DNA of 64,000 bases from an uncultured Candidatus Saccharibacteria bacterium (GCA_964649715.1 CAZYTH010000005.1:1765-65764); one strand, 5' to 3'. Shown: positions 18,623 through 59,862, counted from the first letter of the stretch. A program made the numbers and translations. The notes: a model not told the origin generated them from the sequence alone.

Positions 18623-18626
18623 CCTT

Positions 18627-42048: not shown

Positions 42049-42372
42049 ATGGATTTTAAAACAAACAAAGAACTTTTTGATTATGTTTTCAAAAAAGGCG
42101 GTGGTGTCTACTCCCCTTTTTTATCCTTAAAGTTTTTTAACTCAACTGTTTCTAAGAAAAATAAATTTTTTTTTGTGGTATCTTCAAAAATTTCTAAGAA
42201 AGCGACTGTAAGAAATCTGTTTAAGAGAAGGGGTCGGAATATCATTGCTAAAAACATAAAAGGAGGTGTTTCTGGTATATTTTTTGCAAAGAAAGGTATT
42301 TCAGAGCTTACTTTTTCTCAACTTGAGAGCGAAATGATCTCTTTATTAAAAAGAGCGAAAGTGTTAGGATAA
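42049..42372 (+). CDS. rnpA: Ribonuclease P protein component
   Basis: Basic 107 aa protein with ...FFVVSSKISKKATVRNLFKRRGRNI... (RNR motif region) between rpmH and yidC. Confidence 0.75.
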   Translation: MDFKTNKELFDYVFKKGGGVYSPFLSLKFFNSTVSKKNKFFFVVSSKISKKATVRNLFKRRGRNIIAKNIKGGVSGIFFAKKGISELTFSQLESEMISLLKRAKVLG

Positions 42373-42410
42373 GCAAATCGTTATTTTTTTTATTAAAATA
42401 ATACTTTTAA

Positions 42411-43130: not shown

Positions 43131-43141
43131 ATTAGAAATTG

Positions 43142-43160
43142 CCAATTACGAATTACGAAT
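43142..43160. repeat. Left arm of perfect 19 bp inverted repeat ccaattacgaattacgaat flanking the four-helix-bundle gene
   Basis: Reverse complement is found at 43510-43528. Confidence 0.75.
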
Positions 43161-43518
43161 GAAGGAAAATATTATTCAAAAGAAGAGTTACGATTTTGCA
43201 TTAAAAATAGTCGGTATATATCAAAATTTAGTAAAAAACAACAAAGAATTTGTTCTTTCGAAGCAATTACTGAGAAGCGGAACCTCAATCGGTGCTAATA
43301 TTGAAGAGGCAATCGGAGCTCAATCTAGAAAAGATTTTTATTCAAAGCTCAGTATAGCCTATAAAGAAGCAAGGGAAACCAAATATTGGGTAAGAATACT
43401 TTGTGATAGCGACATGTTGTCTACCAATGAGGCTGGTTTGTTGTTGAATGATCTCGAAGAGATACTAAAAATCATAGGAAAAATTCAAAAAACCGTTAAA
43501 GATGGTTTTAATTCGTAA
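43159..43518 (+). CDS. Four-helix-bundle protein (23S rRNA intervening-sequence protein / DGR Avd-like family)
   Basis: 119 aa. KKSYDFALKIVGIY ... SGTSIGANIEEA ... KDFYSKLSIAYKEARETKYWV matches the TIGR02436-type four-helix-bundle family. Confidence 0.7.
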   Translation: MKENIIQKKSYDFALKIVGIYQNLVKNNKEFVLSKQLLRSGTSIGANIEEAIGAQSRKDFYSKLSIAYKEARETKYWVRILCDSDMLSTNEAGLLLNDLEEILKIIGKIQKTVKDGFNS

Positions 43519-43528
43519 TTCGTAATTG
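43510..43528. repeat. Right arm (attcgtaattcgtaattgg) of the 19 bp inverted repeat
   Basis: Perfect reverse complement of 43142-43160. Confidence 0.75.
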
Positions 43529-43540
43529 GTAATTTCTAAT

Positions 43541-44830
43541 TTATTTCAGCTTCACGACCCAAGCAGTGCCGTCTTTTTTGTTTATGAATGCAAAAAAGTC
43601 TTCGTTTTCGCTTAAAATTGGTTCTATAATATCTATCTCTACTCCCCCTAGCTTCTCTTTGTCTATAATTATCCTAGCGGTAGCACTGCTGGTGTCTATT
43701 TGCCAAATTGTATCTGAGAAAGATGAGATTCCCTGATACCATGATTCGGGATATTTTGAACCTAATACTACATTAGGAACTCCACAATAAATTATATTTT
43801 CATCACCTTTACTAAAGACGCATTTTTCAGGAAGAGTTTTTAAAGGGAAAGAATTGGTTGCACCATCCACTTGATTAAAAAAGTATGTCATAAAACCTGT
43901 CCCTACGGTTTCGGAATAGATAACGTTATTATTTTTTGGGCTTATTTTTGTAGTAAGGCCAGAAATATCCCCGATAACCTTTTGGAAATTATTTGTTCCG
44001 TTCACAGATAAAGAATAAAGTTGCCCTAAGGCAGAAGAAGAAGGTTTTGTCGCCAAGGAAATTATTTTGTCTGATTCCCAAGACACACTCCACTCTTTAA
44101 GAGGAGAACTCCATATTTGAGTTTTCGGACTAGAAAGTGGGTCTGAATTAAATTCTCCTATAGTACCAACCACAGAGCCTCCATTGTTTATTAAGTAAAA
44201 TACTTTGTCTTTGTCTGGAGAAACAGCGAAACCAAGTGTATTTGAAGGAAGAATGGTTCCGTTTAGTTTGCCTACACCTGACTCAACAGTTACCTCTGTT
44301 TCAGAAGATGGTTCTATTGTGCCATATATCGTTTGAAGGATGTTGTTTATTCCCTCAAGTCTTCTTAATATTAAATTCTGGCCGTTTTTCCCCCACGAAG
44401 TATCTACTATCCCCGTGATAGTTGTGTTTGTTATTTTTGTTGGAATATTTTCACTAAAAGACATATCTTTTATGTGTCCTGTTCCTTTCTCTATAAAACG
44501 AAGCGAAGGCTCTCCTTCGTTTTTGTTCACAAAAGTTATTCCTGCCACAGAGACACTTGTCATTTTTTTAATACTGCCAGGAATTCTTGTTTCATAGTCG
44601 TCTATTGTTTGATCGTTCTGATTTATAAAATCTGAACTTTCATTTTTTGTTGTATTTCCGTTTATTTTTCCGCTACTTGGAAAATAGTTCGTGTCTTCAT
44701 TTGTCGGCGGTTGAGGTTCTCCTGAAGAAGGAAATTGTTCCCCTCTTTGAAGATACCAAACAGTCCCTCCTACAGAGGCAACTATTAAAAGAGAAATTAT
44801 TACCACAAAGATAGTTGTCCTTTTGTTCAT
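43541..44830 (-). CDS. Membrane-anchored extracytoplasmic hypothetical protein
   Basis: Likely start MNKRTTIFVVIISLLIVASVGG (one TM), then a Ser/Thr/Gly/Asn-rich beta-rich domain. The upstream His/Gln-rich extension in the ORF track is probably non-coding. Confidence 0.45.
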   Translation of the reverse strand: MNKRTTIFVVIISLLIVASVGGTVWYLQRGEQFPSSGEPQPPTNEDTNYFPSSGKINGNTTKNESSDFINQNDQTIDDYETRIPGSIKKMTSVSVAGITFVNKNEGEPSLRFIEKGTGHIKDMSFSENIPTKITNTTITGIVDTSWGKNGQNLILRRLEGINNILQTIYGTIEPSSETEVTVESGVGKLNGTILPSNTLGFAVSPDKDKVFYLINNGGSVVGTIGEFNSDPLSSPKTQIWSSPLKEWSVSWESDKIISLATKPSSSALGQLYSLSVNGTNNFQKVIGDISGLTTKISPKNNNVIYSETVGTGFMTYFFNQVDGATNSFPLKTLPEKCVFSKGDENIIYCGVPNVVLGSKYPESWYQGISSFSDTIWQIDTSSATARIIIDKEKLGGVEIDIIEPILSENEDFFAFINKKDGTAWVVKLK

Positions 44831-44849: not shown

Positions 44850-45305
44850 TTAAAAAGCACCAGTACTCCCTCCACCTGCAGGTGCTCCTGGTGTTGGTTG
44901 TGGATTTGATGTTCCTGGTGTTGTGGCTGTTTCACAATTAGCATCTGACGCACTTAAATCCATCTTAACCAAATTAGGATTTACTGTATTTAAGATAAGA
45001 TAGCCTGTAAGAGCTATAACAAGCCCTATTATTGCGTTGGTGATTCTTTCTTTTGCCTTGCCTTTATTACTATCACTTGCCCACGATGTAGTGTACTCAA
45101 CTCCTCCTATGACTATCATTAGTATTGCAGACAAAACAGCAAAGCCAAGAGCATACCAATAGATAGCTTGTATGTATTTACCTGGGTTTGTGACTGTCTC
45201 CCCTGTAAACCCTTTTATCGGTTCCAGAAGCTTATATGATGATTGAGCAAGAGAAAAAGATGTCGGTATTGTCATTAGGATTGAAAATAAAAAAAGTTTT
45301 GTCAT
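44850..45305 (-). CDS. Putative type IV secretion pilin-like protein (VirB2/TrbC-like topology)
   Basis: 151 aa. Signal peptide plus two hydrophobic helices (YWYALGFAVLSAILMIVIGG and AIIGLVIALTGYLILN). Gly/Pro-rich tail. Located in the type IV secretion-like cluster. Confidence 0.4.
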   Translation of the reverse strand: MTKLFLFSILMTIPTSFSLAQSSYKLLEPIKGFTGETVTNPGKYIQAIYWYALGFAVLSAILMIVIGGVEYTTSWASDSNKGKAKERITNAIIGLVIALTGYLILNTVNPNLVKMDLSASDANCETATTPGTSNPQPTPGAPAGGGSTGAF

Positions 45306-45315
45306 TTTTTTGACA

Positions 45316-46320
45316 TTAAAATTTAAATAAATTCGGTGACGATTTTACCATAAGGGAATTGTTCGTCGACTGGAACAACCTTTTTATGTTTTTTATTGAA
45401 ACGTTTATTAAGGATGTTGTTTCCTCTGAAGACTCGCTTCTTAGTGTTATTATTTTTGGTGTTCCTTCGTTTGGGGTTATGCCTTTTTCATTCATTGTCC
45501 AAGTGAACTCAAGATTTTTGTCGGTCGGTGTGTCGGGGTAAGAGAAGAAATAAGGTTCAGCTCTTATGTTAATCTCTCTTTCAGATAAATTTGTTTGTAG
45601 GTTTAAGGCATTTAGATAGTTTGTCCCATCGGCTGGCTTGTCTTCGTAAAAAATTATTAAAGGTTCTTCTGGCTTTATTTTTATTTCTTTTTCCGCCACA
45701 ATATCTCCTTTGGAATTTGTTGCAATAACAGAGACTTTGGTATCACCAAAAGGACTTCCCATTGTAATCTTTTCGCTAGTTTTTCCATATCCCTTGCTTA
45801 TTCTTGATGAGTTTGCAAACCATTCATAGGTAAGATCATCAGGTGAAATCCTTGTGCCTTTTTCCGATAGGAAAAAAGGGACAGCAACAACTTTTACAGT
45901 GCTTTTTGGGGATGCGCCAGCCTTTCCCTTGTAAAGTGGTGGAACATAGGTATCTGCTTCCCACACAATATCAACATCAGCAGGATTTACAGACATTGTT
46001 TTTTCGATTTCTTTTCCATCTCCTTTAAAAACCCCACGGACGACAGTGTTTGAGCCGTTTTTTCCCGTTTGAAAAGAAAATTCTTTTCTGCCAACCCCCT
46101 CTTTCTCAAGTGAGCCGTTAATGTACCAATAAATATGAGCGTTATTGAGGTCCATTTCGTAACTTATGGCACTTACTTTTACATTCGTGAAACTTCCCGG
46201 ATTTTTTGGAGTAATGTTAAAGCCCACTTCACCTCCAATACTCCTGTTTACAACTAAGGCGTTTGAAAAGAATGGAACGAGGGCAAATATTATTGATGCT
46301 ATTTTTATATATTTTTTCAT
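45316..46320 (-). CDS. Secreted hypothetical protein (signal peptide, 334 aa)
   Basis: MKKYIKIASIIFALVPFFSNA signal peptide. Beta-rich composition. Confidence 0.45.
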   Translation of the reverse strand: MKKYIKIASIIFALVPFFSNALVVNRSIGGEVGFNITPKNPGSFTNVKVSAISYEMDLNNAHIYWYINGSLEKEGVGRKEFSFQTGKNGSNTVVRGVFKGDGKEIEKTMSVNPADVDIVWEADTYVPPLYKGKAGASPKSTVKVVAVPFFLSEKGTRISPDDLTYEWFANSSRISKGYGKTSEKITMGSPFGDTKVSVIATNSKGDIVAEKEIKIKPEEPLIIFYEDKPADGTNYLNALNLQTNLSEREINIRAEPYFFSYPDTPTDKNLEFTWTMNEKGITPNEGTPKIITLRSESSEETTSLINVSIKNIKRLFQSTNNSLMVKSSPNLFKF

Positions 46321-46371
46321 ATACCCTCTTAAATTTTAATAATAAAACTTTTAAATTATCTGTTTCAAAGA

Positions 46372-46965
46372 TTAAGCTGTTTCTGTTTGAAGGTTTGTTT
46401 CTGGGATTTCGTTTGTTTGCGTTTGTGGAACTCGTGAAAGTGAATTTTCGTATTGAGGATAACCACTTACGGCCCCAAGTGCCCTGTTTGCCCACATTTT
46501 TTGATTTACGCTTAGATTTGAACCTGCTATTTTTCCGCCTAGTTTACCTGAGATCGCCCCTGTTAAACTACTACCTCTTTCATAATTTAATTTTGCCCGA
46601 TATATCATAAATGTCCATGTGGGGAGAATACTTCCAACTATTGGTATCGTCTCTACAAACCAGCTTATCATCAGTGTGACAAAAAACTTAGCTCCAAGTC
46701 CTTTGTTTGACCAAATAATTGCCCACATAACGAAAGTTAACCCTGCAAATATATTTAAGGTAATTGTAGCCCCCCCAAGAAGAAAGAAATCAACGATCAA
46801 ACAAAGAAAACCGCAAAAATCAAAAAAATAGGATGCCAGGAAAAGAAGAACCCAATCTCCTTTATTCATTTTGCCTTTTGATTCGTTCATTATCCCTAAT
46901 TTATTAACTTTTTGGTTCTCATTCCCACCCCCGATTAAGATGACATCCACAAATTTATAAACCAA
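46372..46965 (-). CDS. Multi-pass membrane protein, type IV secretion-associated by context
   Basis: Four or more hydrophobic helices. Gly-rich C-terminal region. Function unknown. Confidence 0.4.
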   Translation of the reverse strand: MVYKFVDVILIGGGNENQKVNKLGIMNESKGKMNKGDWVLLFLASYFFDFCGFLCLIVDFFLLGGATITLNIFAGLTFVMWAIIWSNKGLGAKFFVTLMISWFVETIPIVGSILPTWTFMIYRAKLNYERGSSLTGAISGKLGGKIAGSNLSVNQKMWANRALGAVSGYPQYENSLSRVPQTQTNEIPETNLQTETA

Positions 46966-46980
46966 ACTTGATAACTCGTC

Positions 46981-48780
46981 TTACTCACTTGCCTTCAACT
47001 CCGCTTTTGCCTTCTTTATCGCCAGAAGTTGTGATGGATCGGATGTAATGATTTGATCCTCTGTATAAGAAGAAATGACTTTAATCGCCACGTGTTTAAG
47101 ACCAGCAAAGAATATCCCCTCCCCGACATTTGATTCAAGCAAGAGATATTTTTCTTCATCTGTTAGGTTGAAAGTTTTTTTGACTATATCTATTGAAGCT
47201 GGTGATTGTTTGAAAAGTATTTGCATTGAAGAGTTGGTAATAATAGGGACTCCGTATGGAGATTCAAGAAAATCTTTCACGTCCTGGGTTATTGTGGTAA
47301 GACCAAGGAAATATTTTCTTCCTCTTTTTGCAAGACTGAAAAGGAAAGATGCTGTGTCGGGGGATTTCATCATCCACCACGCCTCATCTATAATAAGCAT
47401 TCTTTTTCTAAGTTCTCTTCTTACTGATCCCCAGATATTATTCATGACAATATGCATTGCTACCGGTTTTAGTTCATCTTCCATATCCCTAACTGAAAAA
47501 ACGACAAATTTTTTGTTTATATCAACGTTTGTTGGTCTGTTTAAAAATCCTGCCCATGTTCCTTGTGTGAATTTTAGAAGTCTTTGTGCAAGAGAAGCTC
47601 CTCCTTCCATTCCAGCCAATACCAGCTCTAAGTCGGAAAGAAGCGGAGGTGTGGTGCCTGAAAAATCACTGTCGGCTGTTATGTCTTTGAGCGCGTATGT
47701 TTCCCTTATCGCATTATCCATTATCGCATCTTCTTCGGGCGTCATACCAGAAAGCATTATTCGAAAGAGACCGACAAGGTTTATGATATGGGAACGTAGT
47801 ACATCGGAAGATGATTCGTCTTCTCTCACAAATGGCAGGTCAAAAGGATTTATGTGGTGTTCTGATGTTAAAGAAATATTGAAATATCTTCCACCCACCG
47901 CTTCTGCCAGGAATTCATACTCCCTCTCAGGGTCAATAACAATAACATCAACATCAAACATAAGCGATCTAAGTATTTCAAGTTTTGTGAAATAAGATTT
48001 TCCTGATCCTGACTTTGCAAAAATTACGGAATTGTAGTTTTCCAGAGAGAATCTATCAAAAAGTATTAAACCTGAATTGTGTCTGTTTATTCCATAAAGG
48101 ATTCCTTTGTTTGATGTGAGGTCAAAAGAAATAAATGGAAAAACGCTAGATAATGGAGAGGAGTTTAGTTTCGTGTTTACTTGAAGCCTGTCTGACGCTA
48201 TCGGAATTACACTATTGAATCCTTCTTCTTGCTGAAAAAGAGCGGGTTTTATATAAACAAGACGAGATTCCATCATTGTTTTCACTTCTGCTTCTACTTT
48301 ATTCAATTCCTCTTCGTTACTTGCGTATAGCGTTATATAAAGCCCGACATCAAATATTTTTTCTCTTGCTTGTTGGAGTAGGTCTCGGAGAGTTTCAATA
48401 TCTTGAAAAGCTGTATCTAAGATAGGGTCTCTTACCATACCCTTTGCCTCGTTTGCGTGTATTTGGCTCTGTACTTCAGCCAGTTTTTTCTGGAGTTGTC
48501 TCAAAACAAGAGAGGTATCTATCGGATGAATGATTACAGAAACATCAAATATTTTGTCTAAATTTATTATCGGAGAGAACCAATTTTCGGAAAGAAAACG
48601 AGGATAAGAAATAACATAAAATGTTCTAGCCACTTTCTCCCCTATTTTTATGTTGTTTGATCCAACCTCAAGAGCAGATGGAGAGATGACATCCCTTAAC
48701 TCTAAAACTCCGCTTGAATAAATATCTTGTGGTAAGATGGCTTCTATTTTATTATCTTTATTTTTTCCAAAAAAATCCAT
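46981..48780 (-). CDS. Type IV secretion ATPase VirB4/TrbE/TraE family, ATPase part (599 aa)
   Basis: Walker A IFAKSGSGKSYFTK. Walker B MLIIDEAWWMM. Conserved VirB4 middle region (...ILPQDIYSSGVLELRD...FYVISYPRF...). Confidence 0.8.
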   Translation of the reverse strand: MDFFGKNKDNKIEAILPQDIYSSGVLELRDVISPSALEVGSNNIKIGEKVARTFYVISYPRFLSENWFSPIINLDKIFDVSVIIHPIDTSLVLRQLQKKLAEVQSQIHANEAKGMVRDPILDTAFQDIETLRDLLQQAREKIFDVGLYITLYASNEEELNKVEAEVKTMMESRLVYIKPALFQQEEGFNSVIPIASDRLQVNTKLNSSPLSSVFPFISFDLTSNKGILYGINRHNSGLILFDRFSLENYNSVIFAKSGSGKSYFTKLEILRSLMFDVDVIVIDPEREYEFLAEAVGGRYFNISLTSEHHINPFDLPFVREDESSSDVLRSHIINLVGLFRIMLSGMTPEEDAIMDNAIRETYALKDITADSDFSGTTPPLLSDLELVLAGMEGGASLAQRLLKFTQGTWAGFLNRPTNVDINKKFVVFSVRDMEDELKPVAMHIVMNNIWGSVRRELRKRMLIIDEAWWMMKSPDTASFLFSLAKRGRKYFLGLTTITQDVKDFLESPYGVPIITNSSMQILFKQSPASIDIVKKTFNLTDEEKYLLLESNVGEGIFFAGLKHVAIKVISSYTEDQIITSDPSQLLAIKKAKAELKASE

Positions 48781-48819
48781 GTTTCAAAATTAAAATTTAA
48801 AAATCAAAAGGTTATAAAA

Positions 48820-49467
48820 TTATACCTTGGGAACACCGCCTTGTTCATCGGGATTGAATATTTTGTAAAATAGTTCTATCAACTCCTCTGTTCCTAAAGG
48901 GACCGATCTTACACCGCTTCTACTTAATCCTTGTGTAACAACGCTAACTCTTTGCTCTATCTGTGTCCTGTTTTCTTCGAAAGTAAGTAATTCTTGCCTT
49001 TTTTCTTCTCTTGAATCTTTTCCTCCACCAAAGATGCTGAAGATTTTAGAAGAAGCTCCGCTTGCAGATTGCATCACAGGTGGTGAATATGGAACGACAA
49101 CATAGAAAGATTTTTCCATTATGTTTACTCCTTCTGTAAAACCCCTGATGAAATTTATATATTCTCTTAATTGTATTTTGAGAAGCTCGCTTGGTTGAGA
49201 GCTCATTTTTTCTGACATTGAAGATAGATATGGTCTTATGTCCAATCTTCTTGATTGGATTAGTATTTGAACGGTAAAATCAAGTGAGTTAAGGAAGTTT
49301 TGGTATTGCATTATTATCGCTTGTTGTTCGTCGGATGATTTGAGAGCGAAGTTCAGTGAAGAGCACATAAATATCATAAGCATAGTTCCATCTTTCAGGA
49401 CGACTATCCCATCTCTTATTTCTTTTATTGGAACGAAATCTTGTGTGCTTTTATTATTATCGGCCAT
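48820..49467 (-). CDS. Separate ORF encoding a VirB4-type N-terminal domain (215 aa)
   Basis: IPIKEIRDGIVVLKDGTMLMIFMCSSLNFALKSSDEQQAIIMQYQNFLNSLDF matches the N-terminal domain of Gram-positive-type VirB4/TraE proteins. Lies 39 nt upstream of the ATPase ORF on the same strand. Confidence 0.6.
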   Translation of the reverse strand: MADNNKSTQDFVPIKEIRDGIVVLKDGTMLMIFMCSSLNFALKSSDEQQAIIMQYQNFLNSLDFTVQILIQSRRLDIRPYLSSMSEKMSSQPSELLKIQLREYINFIRGFTEGVNIMEKSFYVVVPYSPPVMQSASGASSKIFSIFGGGKDSREEKRQELLTFEENRTQIEQRVSVVTQGLSRSGVRSVPLGTEELIELFYKIFNPDEQGGVPKV

Positions 49468-49473
49468 ATATTC

Positions 49474-49555
49474 AATTACGAATTTTTAATTACTAATTAC
49501 GAATTAAACTTTTTCTTTTCTTTATTTTATCATCAATCATTATTAATTCGTAATT
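49474..49555. repeat. Cluster of aattacgaat-family repeats (two direct, one inverted) in the spacer between the VirB4 N-domain ORF and the PrgI-like gene
   Basis: caattacgaat 49474-49484, ctaattacgaatt 49493-49505, aattcgtaatta 49544-49555. Confidence 0.6.
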
Positions 49556-49982
49556 ATTTTATTTTCTCCTGTATATCTAAACTCCATGCGATGTCTTTAA
49601 GTTTGCCTGATGTAAGTTTTGGCGTTGCGGTCTTTGGTGATGACGCTTTCCCTATAAGTTGATCAAGGTCGTCAGCTTCTTTTTTTATAACCGTTGCTTC
49701 TTTTTTCCAGAGGTATCTCTTTCCCGAAAGGGTGAAGCTAAACCACGCTTGGACTATGTCTATAAACGGTCTATCGTTCACTTTATAGTAAGCCAGAGCA
49801 ACAGCAAATGCGATAAAAGGAAGAACGATTATATATGATATAGATCCAATATACGGTTCAAGTATTCTGTACAGCCCATAACCACCACCAAAACCACCCA
49901 AAAGATAAAGGAATTGTTTGAAGGTGAAAGGTCCTACGACCTTATCCTCTACTTCTATGAATTGTGGGACTTGGAACTGCAT
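49554..49982 (-). CDS. PrgI-family protein (VirB3-like type IV secretion component)
   Basis: MQFQVPQFIEVEDKVVGPFTFKQFLYLLGG N-terminus typical of the PrgI family, followed by two TM helices. Confidence 0.6.
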   Translation of the reverse strand: MQFQVPQFIEVEDKVVGPFTFKQFLYLLGGFGGGYGLYRILEPYIGSISYIIVLPFIAFAVALAYYKVNDRPFIDIVQAWFSFTLSGKRYLWKKEATVIKKEADDLDQLIGKASSPKTATPKLTSGKLKDIAWSLDIQEKIK

Positions 49983-49989
49983 ATATAAT

Positions 49990-50061
49990 CAATTATGAAT
50001 TAATAATTACGAATTACGAATTTTCTTGTACCATTGCTTTATATTTCCTGCCTGCCGGCAG
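49990..50061. repeat. Spacer containing both repeat families: aattatgaattaataattacgaattacgaat (49990-50023) and cctgcctgccggcag (50047-50061)
   Basis: Seen directly. Confidence 0.6.
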
Positions 50062-50084
50062 TTCGTTTTTTTTGTTCTACGCTT

Positions 50085-50762
50085 TTACATCATTTCCCTA
50101 TAGGGATCTGGTGCAATTCCTCCTCCTCCCACCCTTACATCTGTCTCTGTTTTTGGTATTTCTGTCGGTTCGTTTATCTTCTTCTCTAAAATATCCATTC
50201 CGCTAGTTGCTTGAAATCCGAGAATGCTCGTGTCTTGTTTTTTTGTTTCGGTTATTTTGCCTTCTAAGATATCCATCGTTTTTCTGGGCACATTTAAACT
50301 CTCTCTTTCTACTTTTTTCATAATGTTTGATTGTGTCTCTGTCTTCTCTCCTACTGTAAAAACTTTTTGTCCTGCGTGTATGGCTCGCAAAGATTCCTTA
50401 ACTTTGGCGAATATTTTTTCGTTTATTTCCATAACGATATTGCTTGCTTTATTTTTGTCTATACCGAGTCTGGCTACTATACTGCCAACAAATTCCATTG
50501 GGTCGGATACTCCGAGAAGGACAAGTCCTGTCTCCTGCCCTAAAATTGCTGTTTGGTCGACGTGGAGATTGTATTTCTTGCTTGTTTCAAATATCGCTTC
50601 GGCTGAATCAACAGAAGCTATGGCGTCTTTCAGATCTTCGGGCAAGTTATCAAAAATATCGTTCAGCTTATTCCTGTCGTGATTTAAAACAGGCCCACCT
50701 TTATTTAAGGCGATAGTCGGTCCTGATTTGTAAATATTTAATTCATCGTTTTTGAGAATCAT
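50085..50762 (-). CDS. Hypothetical protein (225 aa), type IV secretion locus
   Basis: Coherent ORF. No motifs recognised. Confidence 0.4.
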   Translation of the reverse strand: MILKNDELNIYKSGPTIALNKGGPVLNHDRNKLNDIFDNLPEDLKDAIASVDSAEAIFETSKKYNLHVDQTAILGQETGLVLLGVSDPMEFVGSIVARLGIDKNKASNIVMEINEKIFAKVKESLRAIHAGQKVFTVGEKTETQSNIMKKVERESLNVPRKTMDILEGKITETKKQDTSILGFQATSGMDILEKKINEPTEIPKTETDVRVGGGGIAPDPYREMM

Positions 50763-53291
50763 TTATGGATTGTTTATTATTGATTCTAATTCTGCCACCT
50801 TTGTTCTTAATTCATCCCTTTTTGAAATAAGAGATGGATCTGATCCGCCAGCGACAATAAGATCAGATTCGGCTTTGGTAAGCTGTCTTTTTGTGTCTGG
50901 AAGATTTTTTCTCGCCTCTATTTTATCTGCCATCTTTTTCCTACCTACTTCTTTAAGTTTTTTCAAATCATCCTTGTCAAATGCTTCTGCAGCCTCATCT
51001 GTATCTAGTATCGAGTCCTCTAATTCGGCAGCATTCTTAGCACTCATGGATTTTAGGGCTTTAATTTTCTTATCTTTCGTGTCATAAGAATTCCAATTTC
51101 CTTGAACAACATCCAACTCTACGTGTTTTCTCCCTCTGTAGTTTCTTTCGTTTGAATGAACTGTATTCTTAAGTGCAATTAACTGATCTGGTTTAAGATT
51201 GCCTTTTTCTTCTAAAGCCTTGATTTGGGCCTCGTCAAGCCACTGTGCTATTTTCCCGTTGTTTTCCATCAGTTTCTTTATACCAAGATCAAGTATTTTG
51301 TCACCCCTGAACAGTGAAAGACCTTCTCTGATTTCTTTTTCTATTCCCTTTTTTGCATTATCCAAATTTCCGTTATGCTTTTCGTCAGCATATTCTTTAA
51401 ATTCTTTTCTTGCTTTTTCCTCGGCTTTGACTAATCCCAGATTATTATCTCTTGCATAATTATCTTTTTGTTCTTGCGTCATATTATCCCAGTCGACCAA
51501 ACTAGAAACTCTTTGCATTTCTTTTTTCTTTTGTTCTATTTCCTGTTTCGCTTTATACGCTTTTTCGGCTTTTTCTCCTGCTTCTCTTTCACCTTTTGTT
51601 TCCATAATTTCAAAACCTGTTCCGGTTTTTACTAGTTCGGAAATTGTTGAACCAGGAGAAGTGACTTTTTCTTTGATTGATTCTCCAAGCATTCCAGCTT
51701 TCGTGCTTATTTTTTCAGCAACGGGTTTGCCTATATTTTTACTCCAATCATTTTGGATATTTGCCCAAGCACCTGATGTGACTCTGCCTTCTTTATCTTT
51801 TACCTCTTCATCTCTATCTCTTATGCCCCTATAAACACTTCTTGCCGAACCTGCACCCACCATAGCCGCACCAGTTGCAAGACCAATAGTCGCGCCTGTG
51901 GCCCATTTGCCGAATTTTTCAGCACCTGACGCGCCAGTGGCTCCCATCTTTTTTGCCATTATGATTGAGGAGAATAGGAAGCCCAAGATTATTATGTGGG
52001 AAAAAATAGTATCAACAGAACCACCCAAGATAGGTATTTTCCAACCTTTATTTATTGATGATATTAAATCACCACAGACAATAAGTTTCATTGTTATGTA
52101 TATTCCAAGCATAAAGGCTGGAGCGAAAAACGCCTGATTGATGAGATTTTCCCAATAACCGCTACTTATTTTTCCTGAAATAGACTTGGGGGCGACCATT
52201 GCTATCCACGGAAGCGGAGACAGTATAAGTGCAATAATTAGACTTATAATTCTCACAATAAAAAGTGCAGAGGCAAAAAACAACACAAAAAGGAAAACAA
52301 TCATAAAGACGGTGGTCATTAGTGCATTTATAGAGATGGCTCCAACAGAGGGAACATCTTTTAACTCAGAGTCTCCTTTTTCCGCAGCAGCCTGACCTGA
52401 TGCAAGTTGTTGTTTTAAGCTTAGTCTCTCTATAAATACGCTAGTAAGATTGCCATTTGGTCCACCTCGTGCTTTGTCGTAGAAATACACAGCAAAAACG
52501 TTTGAAACATCTATTATGATGCCTGTTATTGCCATGCTAAAATTTATCATAACAACAGCGAATATTAGTGTGCTGATCATTTTTTTCCAATTTACACTGT
52601 CAAGACTTAAAATTGTTCCAATCGCAATATACATCATAATCATGAGGGCAAACATATTTACGAGGTCCCTCAACACTTTCCATGCAGATATAACCACATC
52701 CTTTTGTGCAAAACTAGCCATTTCGTTTATTGAGACCTCGACCACAAAGGTGAAAATTTCTGATACAACCCACGTTACCCCAGAAAGTATGTAGAGGAAA
52801 AAGCCCAAGATTCTGGCAAAAGCTTCTCGAAGACAAGCCATTGAAAACGACCCTTCTCCAAACCAGCCTGGTTCGCAGGTGTCTGGCAATTTACCCCCAG
52901 AAGAGACTATTGCCTTTTTTGCTTTCAGTAATTCATCTATTTCAGCTATTCTTTCGTCAATACCTCCACGAGCTCTAACTTTTAAATCCAAGTCAACTCT
53001 TTCTTCTTTTAATTTATCAATCTCTTTTTGAATAGTAGCCTTCTGTAATTTCTCTGTAATTTCTTGTTGCTTCTTTTTTATTTCATCCTTTTCTTTTATT
53101 AATTCATCTCTCTTTTTTTCATTGGATGTTATCTGACTCTTTGCTGTTACAACCTCTTCTCCAGCACTTGTATCTATATAAACATCTGCGCTTACAAAAT
53201 TTGAGCTTAAAGAGAGCAAAAGCAATAAAAACAAAACAGCAAAAGACGTTGATGCTATTTTCTTTATTTTATTGTTTCCGAAAAAGTTCAT
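50763..53291 (-). CDS. VirB6-like polytopic membrane protein with N- and C-terminal coiled-coil extensions (842 aa)
   Basis: Signal/TM at the N-terminus. At least six hydrophobic helices centrally (for example VFMIVFLFVLFFASALFIVRIISLIIALILSPLPWIAMVAP). Long charged coiled-coil regions. Position next to PrgI and VirB4. Confidence 0.55.
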   Translation of the reverse strand: MNFFGNNKIKKIASTSFAVLFLLLLLSLSSNFVSADVYIDTSAGEEVVTAKSQITSNEKKRDELIKEKDEIKKKQQEITEKLQKATIQKEIDKLKEERVDLDLKVRARGGIDERIAEIDELLKAKKAIVSSGGKLPDTCEPGWFGEGSFSMACLREAFARILGFFLYILSGVTWVVSEIFTFVVEVSINEMASFAQKDVVISAWKVLRDLVNMFALMIMMYIAIGTILSLDSVNWKKMISTLIFAVVMINFSMAITGIIIDVSNVFAVYFYDKARGGPNGNLTSVFIERLSLKQQLASGQAAAEKGDSELKDVPSVGAISINALMTTVFMIVFLFVLFFASALFIVRIISLIIALILSPLPWIAMVAPKSISGKISSGYWENLINQAFFAPAFMLGIYITMKLIVCGDLISSINKGWKIPILGGSVDTIFSHIIILGFLFSSIIMAKKMGATGASGAEKFGKWATGATIGLATGAAMVGAGSARSVYRGIRDRDEEVKDKEGRVTSGAWANIQNDWSKNIGKPVAEKISTKAGMLGESIKEKVTSPGSTISELVKTGTGFEIMETKGEREAGEKAEKAYKAKQEIEQKKKEMQRVSSLVDWDNMTQEQKDNYARDNNLGLVKAEEKARKEFKEYADEKHNGNLDNAKKGIEKEIREGLSLFRGDKILDLGIKKLMENNGKIAQWLDEAQIKALEEKGNLKPDQLIALKNTVHSNERNYRGRKHVELDVVQGNWNSYDTKDKKIKALKSMSAKNAAELEDSILDTDEAAEAFDKDDLKKLKEVGRKKMADKIEARKNLPDTKRQLTKAESDLIVAGGSDPSLISKRDELRTKVAELESIINNP

Positions 53292-53294
53292 TTT

Positions 53295-55964
53295 TTATGG
53301 CAAAAGATTTATTGTTGTAAACTTTGAGATTTGTTCTCCCGCTTCGTTTATGCAACTCATTCTATATGTATAGTTTCTGTCAAAGGTGCCCGTTGTTCTT
53401 TTTATGGTTAAGGTGTCGCCAGATGAACTCACTGTATATTTTTTAAATTCTTCTTTTTTGATGTGGTCGGTCTCACTGGTGATAGCCACCCAGAGTCTGT
53501 TTACAATATCTGATCCATCGGGTGTTTCGTCGGTTAAGTTCGCTTGGATATTTAAACTATAACCATTAAGAGTTAGAAATATTGAGTCGTTTGCACTAAG
53601 TCCAGTGATATTTGGTTTGTAGGTGAGGGTCTGTGTTAAGGTGTTCTGACCTATTGTAAATGTATTAGTAGGGATTTGCACTATTGTTCCACCTTCACCA
53701 CTTGCACTTATTTCATATGTAAATATTGAAGGGTGATAGATATCAAAGGTGCCAATTATATTGCTTTCAAAATCCTCATCTTTTTGTATGAGTATTGTTT
53801 TTGTGGTGGAGGCGATATGTTTTCCATTTTCTAAGGTGCTCCATGTCGGCCAGTCCGTCTTGGTCATGCAAGAAATACTGTTTTCGGCCTCATAAAATAT
53901 TTCCGTCTTTTTTATTCCGTTTTTTAGGTCTTCGGTATTGCTTTCAATTTTTAACGTTGGTGCTTCTGGTTCATAATATATTTCTTCGTCACCATAAGAT
54001 TGATCTGGCTCGTCATTGTCAGCACCCGAAAGTCCTGAAAAAAGTTGACTTAAGTAGGAGAGCCAATCTGTGCCACCACTTGTGCCACCAGCACTTCCAC
54101 CACCTCCAGAGGTAGCACCCCCTCCTCCGCCAGATGTTTGTCCGCCACTTGTTTCCATTGTTACTCCCGAGACAGATGAACCACCGCTTCCACTAGATAA
54201 TGGAGAGACACCATCCTTTCTTTTGTCTTCTTCGCTCTCATCAGTGTTTAGAGTTACGTGTATTGGTGCGTCATTCAGAAGAGACGCTCTGTCGGCGACT
54301 AGTTTTGCGGCAATCAATATGGATTCATCGGTGCAGTGTTTTTTGCCATCATATTCAAAAGAATTTATGCATTCAGTCACCGCTGTTATCCCCCCAAATG
54401 GAGCCCAAGTTTGTTCCGCTCGACTCTTATATTCTTCTTCAAATTTATTCTTTATGTCTAAATTAATAAAGAATTGTCCTGGTCCATTGTTTCTGGAATC
54501 AGCTATTTCAAATAAATTACTAAAATTTTGAGATGGGTCTTGGGGAGGATTTTGGATAGAAGCTTTTGTGTCGATGGTAGGTTTTGTTGAGGCCAGATAG
54601 AAAGCTTCTTCATCTTTTTTTATTTCCACCTGTTCCCCAATGGCTTGGGCAATGAGTGTTTTATTTCCTTCGGGTATTTGGGATTTATTTGAATCTAGGA
54701 GATATAATAAAAGGTTGTTGGCAACTTCTTTTGACTCTTGAACCCATTCTTTTAGGGTCACAACCATATTTTTTGTTGGCCCTTGACCTATATCGTTTGA
54801 AGGAGTTCTTCCCTCTTTCATGAATTTTTGATAGTCATCTCTTTCTTTTTTTATGGCCTCCCTTGCCTCTTTAGCTGCTTCTGGATCGTCCTCCCTCTCC
54901 TTCTTTAGAAGGTCTTTTTGTATCGCTAAGATTTTTTCTGTATCCTCGCATATTTTTTGGGTAATGTGTCTGGTTTGTGTGGTCATATTTGCGAGTTGTT
55001 TGGTATAACCAAGAAGAGCTCCTGCTTGCTCTATTACGGGAACACCGTTACTCCCGCTGTCTCCTTGCGAATTTTGTGAGTTATTGCAGACGTTTTGTCC
55101 TGTTTCTTGTCCGTCTTTGATAATATTGTTGTTTTCACTCATTTGTTCAGAAGCACTGTTTACTGTTTCAACGGACTTAACCCCTTGTCCGCCTGCTCCT
55201 ACAACTTCTGCCATCATTCCGCTAGCTCCAGCGCTTGCTCCTGTAATTTGGGATGGAACTCTGTTGCTGTTTGCAAAACCTCCAAGTACGCCCTGAAGAG
55301 AGGAGGCTGAATTCATTATTCCGTTTCCCATCCCAGAAATCATCCCAATTCCCTGTTTGAATTCTGAGGGAATTGTAAAGCCAACCAAACTACCCACTCT
55401 TTCTAGCGTTTGTATTATTTGGGCAGGATTTGCATCTCCCTTACCAAGATTTTTGATGTCGTCAATTAACCCCAAAACAGCTGGAATTTTTCCCACTGTA
55501 TTCATTAAACCGTACACACTTTCAGCTTTATTTATTTGGCCTAAAGTATTATCGATTTTTTCAAATGTTTGTTTTTCTGCTGTGCTAAGCTGGTCGAGTG
55601 CTTCTCGCGCTTTTCTTTTTTTGTCTGCTATTCCTGGTATGTCATAATCAAATAATTTATCAGGACCGTTTATTATTGTTTCGAGCCCTGTCTTTGTAAC
55701 TTCAAATCCTTGTTTTGCAGTAACTCTAACGTTTTTATCTAAATACTCTTTTATTTTTGTTGTGGAGCTTAAATCAATACCAGCATTTTTCCCAGCATTT
55801 AAATAACCTTCTATCGTGCTTGTGTCATAGCCGAAGCTTTTTGCTGCGGATAATATTGAATTGGTATTGTAAGCAAATGTAAAAAGTGGGAAAAGAAAAG
55901 ATATGAACAATATCAGAACAACTGTGAGTCTTATTTTTCTAATTTTTAAAATTCCCCTTTTCAT
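53295..55964 (-). CDS. Large secreted protein (889 aa) with Gly-rich linker, type IV secretion-associated
   Basis: N-terminal TM/signal. Helical N-terminal half. SGGGGGATSGGGGSAGGTSGG linker. Beta-rich C-terminal domain. Candidate surface or adhesin component. Confidence 0.45.
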   Translation of the reverse strand: MKRGILKIRKIRLTVVLILFISFLFPLFTFAYNTNSILSAAKSFGYDTSTIEGYLNAGKNAGIDLSSTTKIKEYLDKNVRVTAKQGFEVTKTGLETIINGPDKLFDYDIPGIADKKRKAREALDQLSTAEKQTFEKIDNTLGQINKAESVYGLMNTVGKIPAVLGLIDDIKNLGKGDANPAQIIQTLERVGSLVGFTIPSEFKQGIGMISGMGNGIMNSASSLQGVLGGFANSNRVPSQITGASAGASGMMAEVVGAGGQGVKSVETVNSASEQMSENNNIIKDGQETGQNVCNNSQNSQGDSGSNGVPVIEQAGALLGYTKQLANMTTQTRHITQKICEDTEKILAIQKDLLKKEREDDPEAAKEAREAIKKERDDYQKFMKEGRTPSNDIGQGPTKNMVVTLKEWVQESKEVANNLLLYLLDSNKSQIPEGNKTLIAQAIGEQVEIKKDEEAFYLASTKPTIDTKASIQNPPQDPSQNFSNLFEIADSRNNGPGQFFINLDIKNKFEEEYKSRAEQTWAPFGGITAVTECINSFEYDGKKHCTDESILIAAKLVADRASLLNDAPIHVTLNTDESEEDKRKDGVSPLSSGSGGSSVSGVTMETSGGQTSGGGGGATSGGGGSAGGTSGGTDWLSYLSQLFSGLSGADNDEPDQSYGDEEIYYEPEAPTLKIESNTEDLKNGIKKTEIFYEAENSISCMTKTDWPTWSTLENGKHIASTTKTILIQKDEDFESNIIGTFDIYHPSIFTYEISASGEGGTIVQIPTNTFTIGQNTLTQTLTYKPNITGLSANDSIFLTLNGYSLNIQANLTDETPDGSDIVNRLWVAITSETDHIKKEEFKKYTVSSSGDTLTIKRTTGTFDRNYTYRMSCINEAGEQISKFTTINLLP

Positions 55965-56792
55965 TTATTTTATCAAATTTATATACAAATTGATTTGTTC
56001 TTCCGGGCCGAATTCTATCTTTTTTTCAGAAAAGAATTTGTTGATCTGGTTTATATTTAAAACAAGTTCATCCGTTTCCCTCTTGAAGTCGTTTACGGTT
56101 GCGATTACGGTATCTGGACTTTCGAGTGCAAGGGATAACAATAGGTCTATATATGATATTTTTGCGCAATTATTCACCAGTTTTAAATGTTGTGATGATA
56201 TTTCGTTTGGAACTTGCATTCCCAAGAGGGTTTCTGCAACGACTTTATGAAGCTCGCTCATAATTCTTATTTTTTCAAAGTCTTGAGAGTTGCCTGTTTG
56301 TATAGCCTGCATCACGAGATAACCTTCGTTTGGGAGGTTTGTTAGGGAGTAGGGTTTTAATGCTGTAACAAGGTCTTTTGCATACTTTTTGTAAACAGCA
56401 TCGTTTTTATCGTAAACGATGTTAAGATTAGAGAATTTATAGGAAATAAAACCCTTTTTGGTGACTGAGTTTGATATTGAAGCAGTATTATCTGACGTTT
56501 GCCTTGTGTAGGTTGGCTCGCTTTTTTTTGTTGTTTCTTCTTCTTCCTCTTCTATCCAATGCCATTTATTTGTCGTTTCTTGATCGTTTTCTTTAGATAA
56601 TGATGTATTTTCCCTTGAGAAAACAAGTACATTTCCCCTTTTTTCAATTTTTTCTATCGCGTCCACCTCTTTATCTATTGCTATGTTTTTGTCTGCAGTT
56701 CCATTTTCAGAAAAGACAAACCACGCTCCAAACAAAAGGAGAATTATTCCTGCTCTCTTCGCAAATTTGTTACTTGGTAGATATTCCATCAA
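55965..56792 (-). CDS. Membrane-anchored hypothetical protein (275 aa)
   Basis: One N-terminal TM (AGIILLLFGAWFVF), then an acidic stretch EEEEEE. Confidence 0.4.
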   Translation of the reverse strand: MMEYLPSNKFAKRAGIILLLFGAWFVFSENGTADKNIAIDKEVDAIEKIEKRGNVLVFSRENTSLSKENDQETTNKWHWIEEEEEETTKKSEPTYTRQTSDNTASISNSVTKKGFISYKFSNLNIVYDKNDAVYKKYAKDLVTALKPYSLTNLPNEGYLVMQAIQTGNSQDFEKIRIMSELHKVVAETLLGMQVPNEISSQHLKLVNNCAKISYIDLLLSLALESPDTVIATVNDFKRETDELVLNINQINKFFSEKKIEFGPEEQINLYINLIK

Positions 56793-56969
56793 AATTGGGA
56801 ACAGTTAGAAACATCCCCAATTTATTATACCACCTTCTCTGAATGAATAGTATAGTCTTTTTTTAAAAAACTGTGGATAAGTCTGTAATTGAAGATAGAC
56901 GGTTTAAATTTAAACTTGGACTCCGGGTTTCCAAGTATTTTGCTTGGAAACCCGGAGTCCAAGTACCCG

Positions 56970-57840: not shown

Positions 57841-59862
57841 TTATTTTAAGCAGTCCCAAATTATGTCATCTTCTGAAGTATTTTTATAGATATTTCCTCC
57901 ATAATTTCTAGAGTCAAAACATTTTTCATTTTTTTCTACAGAAACAATAGAGTCGTCTAGATCAGGCAAAAATTCAGAGGGCAGGTTCATTTGTCTGGTT
58001 CCAAATATCATTCGTGACGAGGAATAAGACAAGAAAAGTTTTTCCTTTGCCCTTGTAACAGCAACGTAAAAAAGTCGTCTTTCTTCTTCTGGGTCGCTTG
58101 AATCATCATCTCCAAAGCTTCTGTGCGGAAAAAGGTTGTCTTCGAGACCAACGATAAAAACATTTTTGAATTCAAGCCCCTTTGATGCATGAACAGTCAT
58201 TAATCGTACTCCCTCTTTCTTTTTTTTGTCCATAATGGCATCTTGGTCAGACATAAGAGATGTATCGGTTAAGAATTTATCAAGTGCTTCTTCAATTGGA
58301 AGATTGTCATATTTTGTGGCAATGTTTGCCAACTCCAAGATGTTTCCTAAACGGTCTATTCCCTCTTCTTTGCCATCTTCTTTAAGCATCACATCCATTC
58401 CTGTTTCTTTTACAATAAATTTTATCGCTTGAGGCAGTTTTTCTTTTAATATTGTTTCGCGAATTTTTTCCATTTTTCTAGCAAAATCAATCACTTTCTC
58501 TCTCATTTTTTCCGGAAGAGAGGCCTCATTCTTTAATAATTCGTAATTCGTAATTGATAATTGATAATTCAACCCGAGAATTTTTTCGAGGGATGTTTTC
58601 CCTATACCTCGTGGAGGAACATTTATGATTCTCCCAAACGATTCTTTGTCTTTTGGATTTAGAGAAAACTTTATAAAAGCAATTATATCTTTTACTTCTT
58701 TTCTTTCATAAAATCGCGTGCCAAGAATTTGATAAGGAGTCCCTGTTTTTAAAAAATTTTCTTCAAGAATGCGAGACTGGAAGTTCGCTCTATAAAGGAC
58801 GGCTATTTCTTCCGGTTTCACGTTGCCTTTTGAGATTATCTCTTTGCATTTTTTTACAACGAAACCTGCTTCATCGTATTCGTCTATGGCTTCAAATAAA
58901 GTTATTTTCTCACCATCTTCGTTTCTCGTGAATAAATTCTTTTCTTTGCGTAACTTGTTTCTTTGAATAACACGATTTGCTAGATCGAGTATTGTCTTGG
59001 TTGAGCGGTAATTCTCTTCCAAAAGGACGGTTTTAGCTCCCGGGAAATTATTTTCAAAATCAAGAATATTTTTGAAGTCGGCATATCTCCAGCTGTATAT
59101 CGCTTGATCACTATCACCCACAACACAAATATTCCCGTGTTTCTCGGCAAGCAGTCGCGAGAGTTCATATTGTGAGGTGTTGGTATCTTGATATTCATCT
59201 ATATGGATATATTTCCAGAGGTCTTGATAACGATCTAATATTTCTTTTTTATTTTTTAGAAGAAGGACACTTTTTTGTATTAGGTCATCAAAATCGTAAG
59301 ATTCATTTTCGGTAAGCATATCCTCGTATTTTCTCCATATTTTTGCGACCATGTCTTTGAAATAACCACTTTTTGATTCGTTTTGGTAGTTTTCAATGCT
59401 TTGCATTTTGTTTTTGCCTCTGGAAATTGCATTGCGAATTGATTTTATATTGATTTCTTTTGGATCAAAACCAAGATCTTTTGCGGATCTCTTGAGAAAA
59501 GAGATTGTTCCATCGTCGTCTAAAATTGAAAAATACCTACTCCTCCCGATTGTGGATGCGTTCTCTTTTAATATTCGGACACCTAAAGAGTGGAAAGTAC
59601 TTATAAAAGGAATATTGCTAAAACCTGTGTTCATTGGAAGGAGTATTCTTACGCGGTCGGACATTTCTTTTGCTGCTTTGTTTGTGAAAGTTACTGCAAG
59701 AATATTTTTCGGTTCCACTCCCGAATTTATTAGATTTGCTATTCTGTGAACTATTGTTTTTGTTTTCCCTGCTCCTGCCCCTGCGACAATAAGAAGAGGA
59801 CCGTTTTTGTGTAAAACGGCTTCTTTTTGTCTCTCGTTTAGATTATTTGAGTGTTCCTGCAT
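57841..59862 (-). CDS. uvrD: ATP-dependent DNA helicase UvrD/PcrA, containing an in-frame aattacgaat-repeat insertion
   Basis: LNERQKEAVLHKNGPLLIVAGAGAGKTKTIVHRIANL (motifs Q and I). Helicase motifs through to VTRAKEKLFLSY. Residues ...LGLNYQLSITNYELLKNE... are encoded by the repeat at 58538-58556. Confidence 0.85.
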   Translation of the reverse strand: MQEHSNNLNERQKEAVLHKNGPLLIVAGAGAGKTKTIVHRIANLINSGVEPKNILAVTFTNKAAKEMSDRVRILLPMNTGFSNIPFISTFHSLGVRILKENASTIGRSRYFSILDDDGTISFLKRSAKDLGFDPKEINIKSIRNAISRGKNKMQSIENYQNESKSGYFKDMVAKIWRKYEDMLTENESYDFDDLIQKSVLLLKNKKEILDRYQDLWKYIHIDEYQDTNTSQYELSRLLAEKHGNICVVGDSDQAIYSWRYADFKNILDFENNFPGAKTVLLEENYRSTKTILDLANRVIQRNKLRKEKNLFTRNEDGEKITLFEAIDEYDEAGFVVKKCKEIISKGNVKPEEIAVLYRANFQSRILEENFLKTGTPYQILGTRFYERKEVKDIIAFIKFSLNPKDKESFGRIINVPPRGIGKTSLEKILGLNYQLSITNYELLKNEASLPEKMREKVIDFARKMEKIRETILKEKLPQAIKFIVKETGMDVMLKEDGKEEGIDRLGNILELANIATKYDNLPIEEALDKFLTDTSLMSDQDAIMDKKKKEGVRLMTVHASKGLEFKNVFIVGLEDNLFPHRSFGDDDSSDPEEERRLFYVAVTRAKEKLFLSYSSSRMIFGTRQMNLPSEFLPDLDDSIVSVEKNEKCFDSRNYGGNIYKNTSEDDIIWDCLK
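58538..58556. repeat. aattcgtaattcgtaattg repeat copy inside the uvrD coding sequence
   Basis: Translates in frame as SITNYEL on the minus strand. Confidence 0.6.

Follow-up and report, generated by a model that had tools for sequence, protein, structure and literature searches.

The question raised by a dense run of minus-strand genes in a 64,000-nt stretch of DNA from an uncultured Candidatus Saccharibacteria bacterium (GCA_964649715.1 CAZYTH010000005.1:1765-65764; hereafter the window) is which machine they encode and what that machine transfers. An initial annotation, made from the sequence alone, had described positions 44850-56792 as a type IV secretion system (T4SS) or conjugation-like locus that could serve DNA uptake, conjugation or effector delivery. 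Our analysis indicates that the locus is very probably the core chromosomal T4SS of Paceibacteria-type Patescibacteria, a member of the "Patescibacteria clade" derived from the mating-pair formation group FATA (MPF-FATA), which would operate in contact-dependent exchange with a host. The reading as a T4SS was therefore upheld, with six components recognized by family matches, homologs or fold. The finding is correct but not of a new kind, as the locus matches the published Patescibacteria T4SS point for point and is thus already known.

Components and conservation of the locus

Eleven co-oriented open reading frames (ORFs) on the minus strand run from 56792 down to 43541, with gaps of 0-102 nt (Table 1). 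The nine genes listed in the initial annotation lie exactly where it had placed them, contiguous and on the same strand. The block probably reaches further downstream, to 43541, and is one gene longer than had been described, because the same gene order, with a homolog of the secreted 429-aa protein at its end, is found in relatives. It is flanked by rsmA on one side and by yidC, rnpA and dnaA on the other, and no RNA gene was found in the locus region. The eleven genes appear to form a single operon that starts after the rsmA terminator. Profile searches, together with homologs and fold comparison, placed six components in T4SS families and gave no membrane or secreted protein to another system. 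VirB4 is not the sole T4SS part, since the pilin, TrsD, PrgI/VirB3, VirB6 and the VirD4-type ATPase are also assignable. The individual calls fared equally well: the pilin-like and PrgI-family proteins pass the PF18895 and PF12666 cut-offs, respectively; the giant VirB6-like protein with coiled-coil extensions has homologs that carry VirB6-type families and a fold that matches the R388 T4SS; the secreted proteins have a signal peptide (334-aa protein) or an N-terminal signal or anchor (889-aa protein); the poly-Gly linker ascribed to the latter is visible as a Gly-rich linker in its translation; and the membrane-anchored protein at 55965-56792 has an N-terminal hydrophobic anchor.

The best family for the 599-aa protein is NF045971, the CD1110-type (monoderm) VirB4, and the protein also matches PF19044, PF12846 and PF01935. 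In a homolog search, each of the 8,000 candidates scored was significant, and the best 120 were about 600 aa long (552-645), 75-92% identical and, where named, from Patescibacteria, Paceibacterota or Vogelbacteria. The exact VirB4 of the window was in no record when looked up on public contigs, and gene context was therefore read from relatives. For comparison, 80 related loci from species-representative genomes were combined with loci fetched earlier to give 82 VirB4-bearing loci, against which all window proteins were searched with tblastn. In all 82, a TrsD homolog stands directly upstream of virB4 in the same orientation (median identity 56%), so the pair is fixed in the lineage. TrsD ORFs measured in relatives span 209-222 aa, with one of 272 aa, and the ortholog in relative L001 carries the TraC-like family PF26593. 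The initial annotation had read VirB4 as "split" into two ORFs. Two ORFs do exist, with a TAA stop and 39 nt between them, and the second opens on its own ATG, but "split" is the wrong word for a form present in every relative. A TrsD followed by a VirB4 of about 600 aa is the normal two-gene arrangement of the lineage, and neither fission nor a pseudogene is involved here. Judged from the NCBIfam match and PMC12102498, this order parallels the TrsD-TrsE order of staphylococcal pGO1. Mycoplasma-style recoding of TGA as Trp was rejected as the cause of the apparent split, given the TAA stop codon and the universal occurrence of two genes.

The pilin also matches NF045849 (pilin-like conjugal transfer protein; E 2.4e-5) and comprises a signal peptide, two transmembrane (TM) helices and a Pro/Thr/Gly-rich C-terminal tail. 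The 842-aa VirB6-like protein itself gave no direct hidden Markov model family match; its homologs carry TrbL/VirB6 PF04610 or PF19590, and when the 36 members of its homolog alignment were scanned singly, 13 matched PF04610. Its parts follow in the order signal peptide, coiled coil, six-TM core (residues ~150-450) and helical C-terminal extension of ~400 aa, which corresponds to an "extended VirB6" as PMC12857230 uses the term. The AlphaFold model had a predicted local distance difference test score of 75.8, exceeding 90 over most of the TM core, and its top Foldseek match in the PDB was 8rtd_L from the R388 T4SS (probability 0.99, E 0.16). Entry 8RTD is the inner-membrane and stalk structure of that system, and the subunit of chain L was not named by the tool; we take it to be TrwI/VirB6, presumably the sole polytopic protein of that size in the structure. 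A VirB6-family homolog found no match among PDB sequences, so this subunit identity was not confirmed by sequence, and the profile of the 842-aa protein retrieved only coiled-coil noise from the same database.

Most block genes are also found, in unchanged order, in Paceibacteria-type genomes, and the comparative check that had been suggested for the locus showed the order rsmA, T4SS, yidC-rnpA-dnaA to be kept across related loci. In one relative, the called genes read rsmA, DUF192, proteins of 282, 1256, 770 and 168 aa, PrgI, a TraC-like protein (213 aa) and VirB4, followed by proteins of 153, 257, 139 and 399 aa and then yidC, rnpA and dnaA. The 275-aa protein is weakly conserved, with a homolog in 7 of the 82 loci. 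Identities to the nearest relative, L007 (UBA12445), fall from the motors to the pilin, VirB6-like and 889-aa proteins (Table 1), a gradient that fits conserved motors and fast-evolving exposed parts. The last three are candidates for host recognition because they evolve fast. The locus is a clean, complete Paceibacteria example in which frozen parts (VirB4, TrsD and PrgI) stand beside these fast-evolving ones and beside a non-canonical VirD4-type ATPase with a fixed small partner; this division, together with the ATPase module, could guide structural and genetic work in cultivable relatives.

The remaining proteins are less readily classified. The 842-, 889-, 334-, 275-, 225- and 197-aa proteins had no significant match when scanned directly against Pfam and NCBIfam. 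The 334-aa protein is probably built of immunoglobulin (Ig)-like domains, as suggested by a weak profile match (E 2e-4) to Ig domains in the Hoc protein of phage T4. The last block gene, which lay outside the span of the initial annotation, encodes 470 aa, or 429 aa if translation starts at Met42, and its profile gave only non-significant TolB β-propeller matches among PDB sequences. The small polytopic protein probably starts at Met26 or Met33 of its 197-aa ORF. It is fast-evolving, with the nearest relative alone giving a match (39% identity over residues 37-146), and its position is filled by a gene of ~130-155 aa in L001, L002 and L007. In the soluble 225-aa protein, residues D219, P220 and Y221 are invariant across a 41-sequence alignment, and no Pfam or PDB relative was found. 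The 889-aa protein combines Gly-rich linkers with a β-rich C-terminal domain; a set of 1.84 billion proteins contained no more than 21 cluster representatives of it. It gave no family or structure match, and its profile retrieved only low-complexity matches from the PDB. Its position is occupied in 49 relatives by an ORF of 300-1256 aa, nearly all with a hydrophobic N-terminus. We read it as an exposed component, conserved in position and hypervariable in sequence, and hence as a candidate surface or host-contact component. The first block gene, for which the ATG at 56789 is the likelier start, encodes a protein whose profile had no PDB relative.

Table 1. Features of the locus and its surroundings in order of position, with the number of related loci (of 82) that have a same-strand homolog in fixed order and the identity to the nearest relative, L007. 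Counts for rsmA and uvrD are limited by the 10-kb flank.
Feature	Position	Strand	Characteristics or basis	Loci (of 82)	Identity to L007 (%)
dnaN	38703-39803		Housekeeping gene
dnaA	40179-41615		Housekeeping gene beside the cluster	56	70
rnpA and yidC	42049-43130		Beside the cluster	59 (yidC)	68 (yidC)
IVS-protein cassette	43122-43549		360-nt 23S rRNA IVS protein gene (PF05635) at 43159-43518
Secreted or anchored β-rich protein, 470-aa ORF, last block gene	43541-44830	-	N-terminal TM or signal segment	65	46
VirB2-like T4SS pilin, 151 aa	44850-45305	-	T4SS_pilin PF18895, 34.1 bits (cut-off 26.6)	62	44
Secreted 334-aa protein	45316-46320	-	Signal peptide	78	45
Small polytopic membrane protein, 197-aa ORF	46372-46965	-	At least two TM segments		39
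VirB4 ATPase, 599 aa	46981-48780	-	NF045971, 364 bits (cut-off 325), model positions 181-733 of 752		90
TrsD-like protein, 215 aa	48820-49467	-	NF045971 positions 2-121; NF041427 TrsD/TraD	82	79
(AATTACG)n spacer	49468-49553		Between PrgI and TrsD genes
PrgI/VirB3-like small membrane protein, 142 aa	49554-49982	-	PF12666, 44.3 bits (cut-off 27)	79	61
(AATTACG)n spacer	49983-50084		Between genes of 225-aa protein and PrgI
Soluble 225-aa protein	50085-50762	-	No TM segment; C-terminal Asp-Pro-Tyr motif	53	53
Extended VirB6-like channel protein, 842 aa	50763-53291	-	Homolog families and fold match	61	38
Hypervariable 889-aa protein, anchored or secreted	53295-55964	-	N-terminal TM or signal segment		27
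Membrane-anchored, largely helical protein, 274-275 aa, first block gene	55965-56792	-	N-terminal hydrophobic stretch		32
Border spacer	56793-56969	-	Perfect 22-bp palindromic hairpin after rsmA stop, 56914-56964, T-rich tail
rsmA			Flank gene, confirmed	38	65
uvrD/pcrA	57841-59862	-	Flank gene, confirmed	25
132-aa protein	62243-62641	+	Immediately upstream of VirD4-type ATPase
VirD4/TraG-type ATPase (coupling-protein homolog)	62652-64000	+	First 449 aa in window; ORF runs off the end

Relation to known systems and proposed mechanism

VirB4 was reported in 2,417 of 3,035 Patescibacteria genomes, mostly in one clade within MPF-FATA (PMC12102498, Quinonero-Coronel et al. 2025). In that survey, TrsD is the commonest companion of VirB4, and PrgI/VirB3, VirB6 and VirB2-like PF18895 pilins lie near virB4; relaxases are very few, VirD4 homologs are usually far from virB4, the Paceibacteria neighborhood consists of dnaA, dnaN, rnpA, ksgA and rpmH, and the phylogeny indicates mainly vertical inheritance within classes. 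The present locus shares VirB4, a separate TrsD, PrgI/VirB3, VirB6 and the PF18895 pilin with this clade, as well as the missing relaxase, a VirD4 homolog away from virB4 and an origin-proximal site beside dnaA, rnpA and ksgA/rsmA, as reported for Paceibacteria. It differs from the pilin arrays of Saccharimonadia and Microgenomatia in having one pilin gene, and its virB4 is not followed directly by peptidase or lysozyme genes. At most ~11 genes lie between virB4 and the VirD4-type gene, a minority case in that study, which does not describe the VirB4-like N-domain of the ATPase, the 132-aa partner or the inserted IVS-protein cassettes.

The MPF-FATA conjugative systems (Trs of pGO1/pSK41, Tra of pIP501, Prg/Pcf of pCF10 and CTn2 of C. 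difficile) have in common with the present locus a VirB4 of CD1110 type (scoring above the NCBIfam cut-off), a gene resembling TrsD ahead of virB4 as in pGO1, a PrgI-type VirB3, a TrbL/VirB6-type channel protein and the lack of an outer-membrane core complex. No outer-membrane core component was found in the 64 kb, and VirB7, VirB9 and VirB10 were without match in any locus protein. In contrast to those systems, the locus comes without relaxase, oriT or recognizable VirB8-like (PrgL/TraM) or VirB1-like hydrolase in the window; it has no PrgB-type adhesin, is part of the chromosomal core instead of a mobile element, and possesses a VirB2-like pilin, which they lack. With the R388/Agrobacterium VirB-VirD4 systems (MPF-T) it shares a VirB2-type pilin, and R388 chains are the top PDB matches for the VirB6-like protein and the N-terminal part of the ATPase; it differs in the absence of VirB5, VirB7, VirB9, VirB10 and VirB11 and in its single-membrane host, and the sequences are only marginally similar. 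The Ced system of archaea and ComB of Helicobacter are likewise T4SS-derived and relaxase-free, and homologs of the ATPase gave weak CedB and CedD matches; these are confined to the P-loop and far below cut-offs, and no CedA-type or ComB-specific component was detected.

By analogy with homologous T4SSs, VirB4 and the separately encoded TrsD-like protein, which resembles the VirB4 N-terminus, would constitute the cytoplasmic motor, which PrgI/VirB3 would dock at the membrane, with the extended VirB6 as the membrane channel platform. The VirB2-like pilin would polymerize to give a short pilus or conduit, which is atypical of single-membrane T4SSs, and the 334-aa protein, the 429-aa β-rich protein and the 889-aa protein may build or decorate the extracellular part and contact the host bacterium. 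The assembly would thereby mediate contact-dependent transfer of macromolecules between an ultra-small episymbiont and its host cell, in either direction, and would be needed for growth on that host. By transposon sequencing, the homologous cluster (SEML1_0006-0019) and its pilins were found to be essential for epibiotic growth of the Saccharibacterium Southlakia epibionticum (PMC10633639, Wang et al. 2023), and a 2025 review adds the system to the T4SS superfamily as a new member (PMC12857230). The Patescibacteria T4SS is among the few conserved envelope machines of a huge, mostly uncultivated radiation; without it, the one organism tested cannot live on a host cell.

Several points weigh against this assignment. 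Membership in the clade is read from similarity and context, and essentiality was shown in Saccharimonadia only, which is a different class from Paceibacteria. Five of the eleven block proteins have no assignable family, and the window yielded neither a VirB8-like (PrgL/TraM) component nor a VirB1-like hydrolase; Pfam, NCBIfam and PDB-profile searches with the unassigned proteins matched none. The single-operon layout was deduced from spacing and one terminator-like hairpin. Finally, the VirD4-type ATPase and the adjacent UvrD/PcrA are compatible with a DNA substrate, which would shift the balance among cargoes.

The VirD4-type ATPase and the cargo of the system

The part of the VirD4-type ATPase contained in the window comprises one TM helix, a DUF8128 domain and the Walker A region. 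Full-length homologs are ~780 aa long and pass the Pfam cut-offs for T4SS-DNA_transf, TrwB_AAD_bind and TraG-D_C; a homolog of 56% identity (P0162) scored 40.3 bits for PF02534, 37.2 for PF10412 and 23.6 for PF12696, all above cut-off. The call of a VirD4-like ATPase at 62652 was thus substantiated. The family profile matches TrwB and DotL, not VirB4, in the PDB, and the best PDB match of the predicted structure of the N-terminal part is an R388 T4SS chain. The protein departs from the canonical VirD4 N-terminus, in which a short membrane anchor is directly followed by the nucleotide-binding domain, and is non-canonical in having a predicted VirB4-like N-terminal domain (DUF8128). This likeness is at the level of fold only, because hhalign found no similarity between the TrsD and ATPase profiles (probability 5%). 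Nothing useful on DUF8128 was found in the literature.

The gene immediately upstream encodes a 132-aa protein, a homolog of which (29-44% identity) directly precedes the ATPase gene in five of five relatives, whatever the wider context; the two therefore form a conserved module. As had been described, rsmA, uvrD and coiled-coil or AT-hook proteins separate the cluster from the ATPase. A 561-aa coiled-coil protein among them carries an AT-hook, RKRGRPKK, and had no homolog in the ATPase loci of the five relatives. The linkage of T4SS, rsmA, uvrD, small gene and ATPase recurs in three of the five (L003, L005 and L089) and is absent in two more distant ones. In the same three, a LysM-Peptidase_M23 gene lies downstream of the ATPase (L003, 13911-14903; L005, 16987-18000; L089, 12625-13674), and the equivalent position here is past the window end. 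Its product is a possible VirB1-like partner that opens the cell wall.

As to what is transferred, the export of proteins or effectors combined with pilus-mediated contact is a serious prospect that we would put slightly below an even chance, import of host DNA or other macromolecules is possible but rather less probable, and conjugation, the least likely of the three functions proposed by the initial annotation, is very improbable. Uptake and export thus both stay live, whereas conjugation is disfavored by a vertically conserved block with no relaxase or integrase. An integrated conjugative element or plasmid remnant capable of self-transfer would explain why the CD1110-type VirB4, TrsD, PrgI and VirD4-like proteins are homologous to single-membrane conjugation machinery, and an IS200-like transposase is present elsewhere in the window. 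Family scans of the 64 kb, however, matched no relaxase, integrase or replication gene in any major ORF, in line with the earlier remark that no relaxase is visible; dozens of genomes have the block between rsmA and yidC, rnpA and dnaA with its gene order unchanged; VirB4 is 90% identical between close relatives, against 70% for dnaA; and the published phylogeny is mainly vertical within classes (PMC12102498). Such an element is accordingly highly unlikely, and it was rejected on context and the missing relaxase. Lack of relaxase and integrase, housekeeping context, conservation of VirB4 above that of dnaA and published vertical inheritance together argue for exchange with the host over conjugation. 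Hardly conceivable is a decaying, non-functional remnant in which the "split VirB4" would reflect pseudogenization: VirB4 homology does extend over two ORFs and repeats occupy two spacers, but the two-gene form is universal among the relatives, all ORFs are intact and tightly packed, and VirB4 is 75-92% identical across the homologs listed. Pseudogenization of VirB4 is refuted by these conservation data.

The same machine might instead serve chiefly to import or exchange DNA or another nucleotide source, comparable to archaeal Ced or Helicobacter ComB, with the ATPase, its 132-aa partner and UvrD/PcrA handling DNA in a relaxase-free manner. In the window and in three of five relatives, rsmA-uvrD connects the ATPase gene with the cluster, a full-length homolog of the ATPase gives weak CedD and CedB matches over the Walker A region, window scans found no relaxase, and the authors of PMC12102498 favor import of DNA or other macromolecules. 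Against this, in the Saccharibacterium studied, the coupling-protein homolog is non-essential although the T4SS is essential, and comEC-dependent DNA uptake is dispensable (PMC12102498, PMC12857230); moreover, the rsmA-uvrD linkage is missing in two of five relatives and may merely reflect origin-proximal gene order, and the CedB and CedD matches are far below cut-offs. We consider this alternative tenable but somewhat unlikely. A little more doubtful is the possibility that the gene at 62652 encodes a second ATPase of VirB4 architecture, i.e. a motor paralog and not a coupling protein or substrate receptor. The C-terminal half of its homologs passes the VirD4/TraG/TrwB Pfam cut-offs, the profile finds TrwB and DotL, not VirB4, in the PDB, and the N-domain has no profile similarity to TrsD; given the ancient paralogy of VirB4 and VirD4, such a protein may look hybrid and still have kept its role. 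Returning to the core Patescibacteria T4SS that we favor, a bolder and improbable extension is that the ATPase of this lineage is a distinct T4SS motor, composed of anchor, VirB4-like DUF8128 and VirD4/TraG domain, always accompanied by a partner of ~130 aa and linked to UvrD/PcrA in the closest relatives, which together with the T4SS would move DNA in a relaxase-free manner, for example to import host DNA. If true, such a DNA-translocating motor would explain how bacteria without nucleotide synthesis feed on their hosts.

Spacer repeats, inserted cassettes and other features of the window

The window has a low G+C content of ~35% and contains the housekeeping genes of a small bacterial genome, among them polA, ruvABC, tyrS and a class A penicillin-binding protein gene in addition to those of Table 1. 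Spacers of the locus had been described as loaded with two dispersed repeat families. Heptamers do occupy the two spacers that flank the PrgI gene, and a hairpin occupies the border spacer, but the other spacers (0-51 nt) carry neither, so "loaded" is too strong. The (AATTACG)n family has 17 matches in the window, against 0.5 expected. Next to the last block gene, a 23S rRNA IVS protein gene is bracketed by 42-nt inverted repeats of AATTACG heptamers that are 93% complementary, and gene-less copies of the repeat lie at 49468-49555 and 49986-50021. In six relatives (L085, L042, L011, L081, L012 and L047), an IVS-protein gene is found in T4SS spacers on the operon strand; the spacers used by relatives include the two that bear repeats in the window. 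The gene of L085 is 66% identical to the window copy and flanked by the same exact 17-mers; among the 89 loci fetched, only one contains this 17-mer, and the nearest relative does not have it. Because IVS-protein genes sit in the T4SS spacers of relatives, in L085 with that 17-mer, the repeats in the spacers of the window are most simply leftover cassette ends. Overall, the IVS-protein unit has the appearance of a small cassette that is mobile or was inserted repeatedly; nothing useful on this protein family was found in the literature. A heptamer repeat is also present within uvrD/pcrA at 58532-58562, where it inserts 13 codons in frame (LNYQLSITNYELL) that three homologs lack, and a decayed cassette copy at 12245-12371 retains a 3' fragment of the IVS-protein gene. 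This decayed copy is immediately downstream of a Mur ligase whose middle and C-terminal domains are on two ORFs (10921-11763 and 11933-12250), ~170 nt apart, which could be a split, a frameshift or an insertion.

The hairpin of the border spacer is the top terminator-like site of the region and looks like the rsmA terminator; one related palindrome lies at 23201-23223, inside the polA ORF. A candidate T4SS promoter with a TGGTATAAT element was read by eye after the hairpin. A sigma-70 promoter scan returned sites no more numerous than in shuffled sequence, so no promoter is claimed from it.

Elsewhere in the window, an IS200-like Y1 transposase ORF (17909-18622) is located beside tRNA-Lys (region 17892-18651), with three copies of a 25-nt palindromic repeat at 17892-17916, 18397-18421 and 18627-18651. 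The type IV pilus genes pilM (81-1187) and pilB (T2SSE ATPase; 24888-26585) are apart from each other and from the T4SS. A 1598-aa FG-GAP repeat protein (3659-8455), which may be a large variable surface protein, is encoded by DNA with internal repeats of 639-nt period and 97-100% identity between copies.

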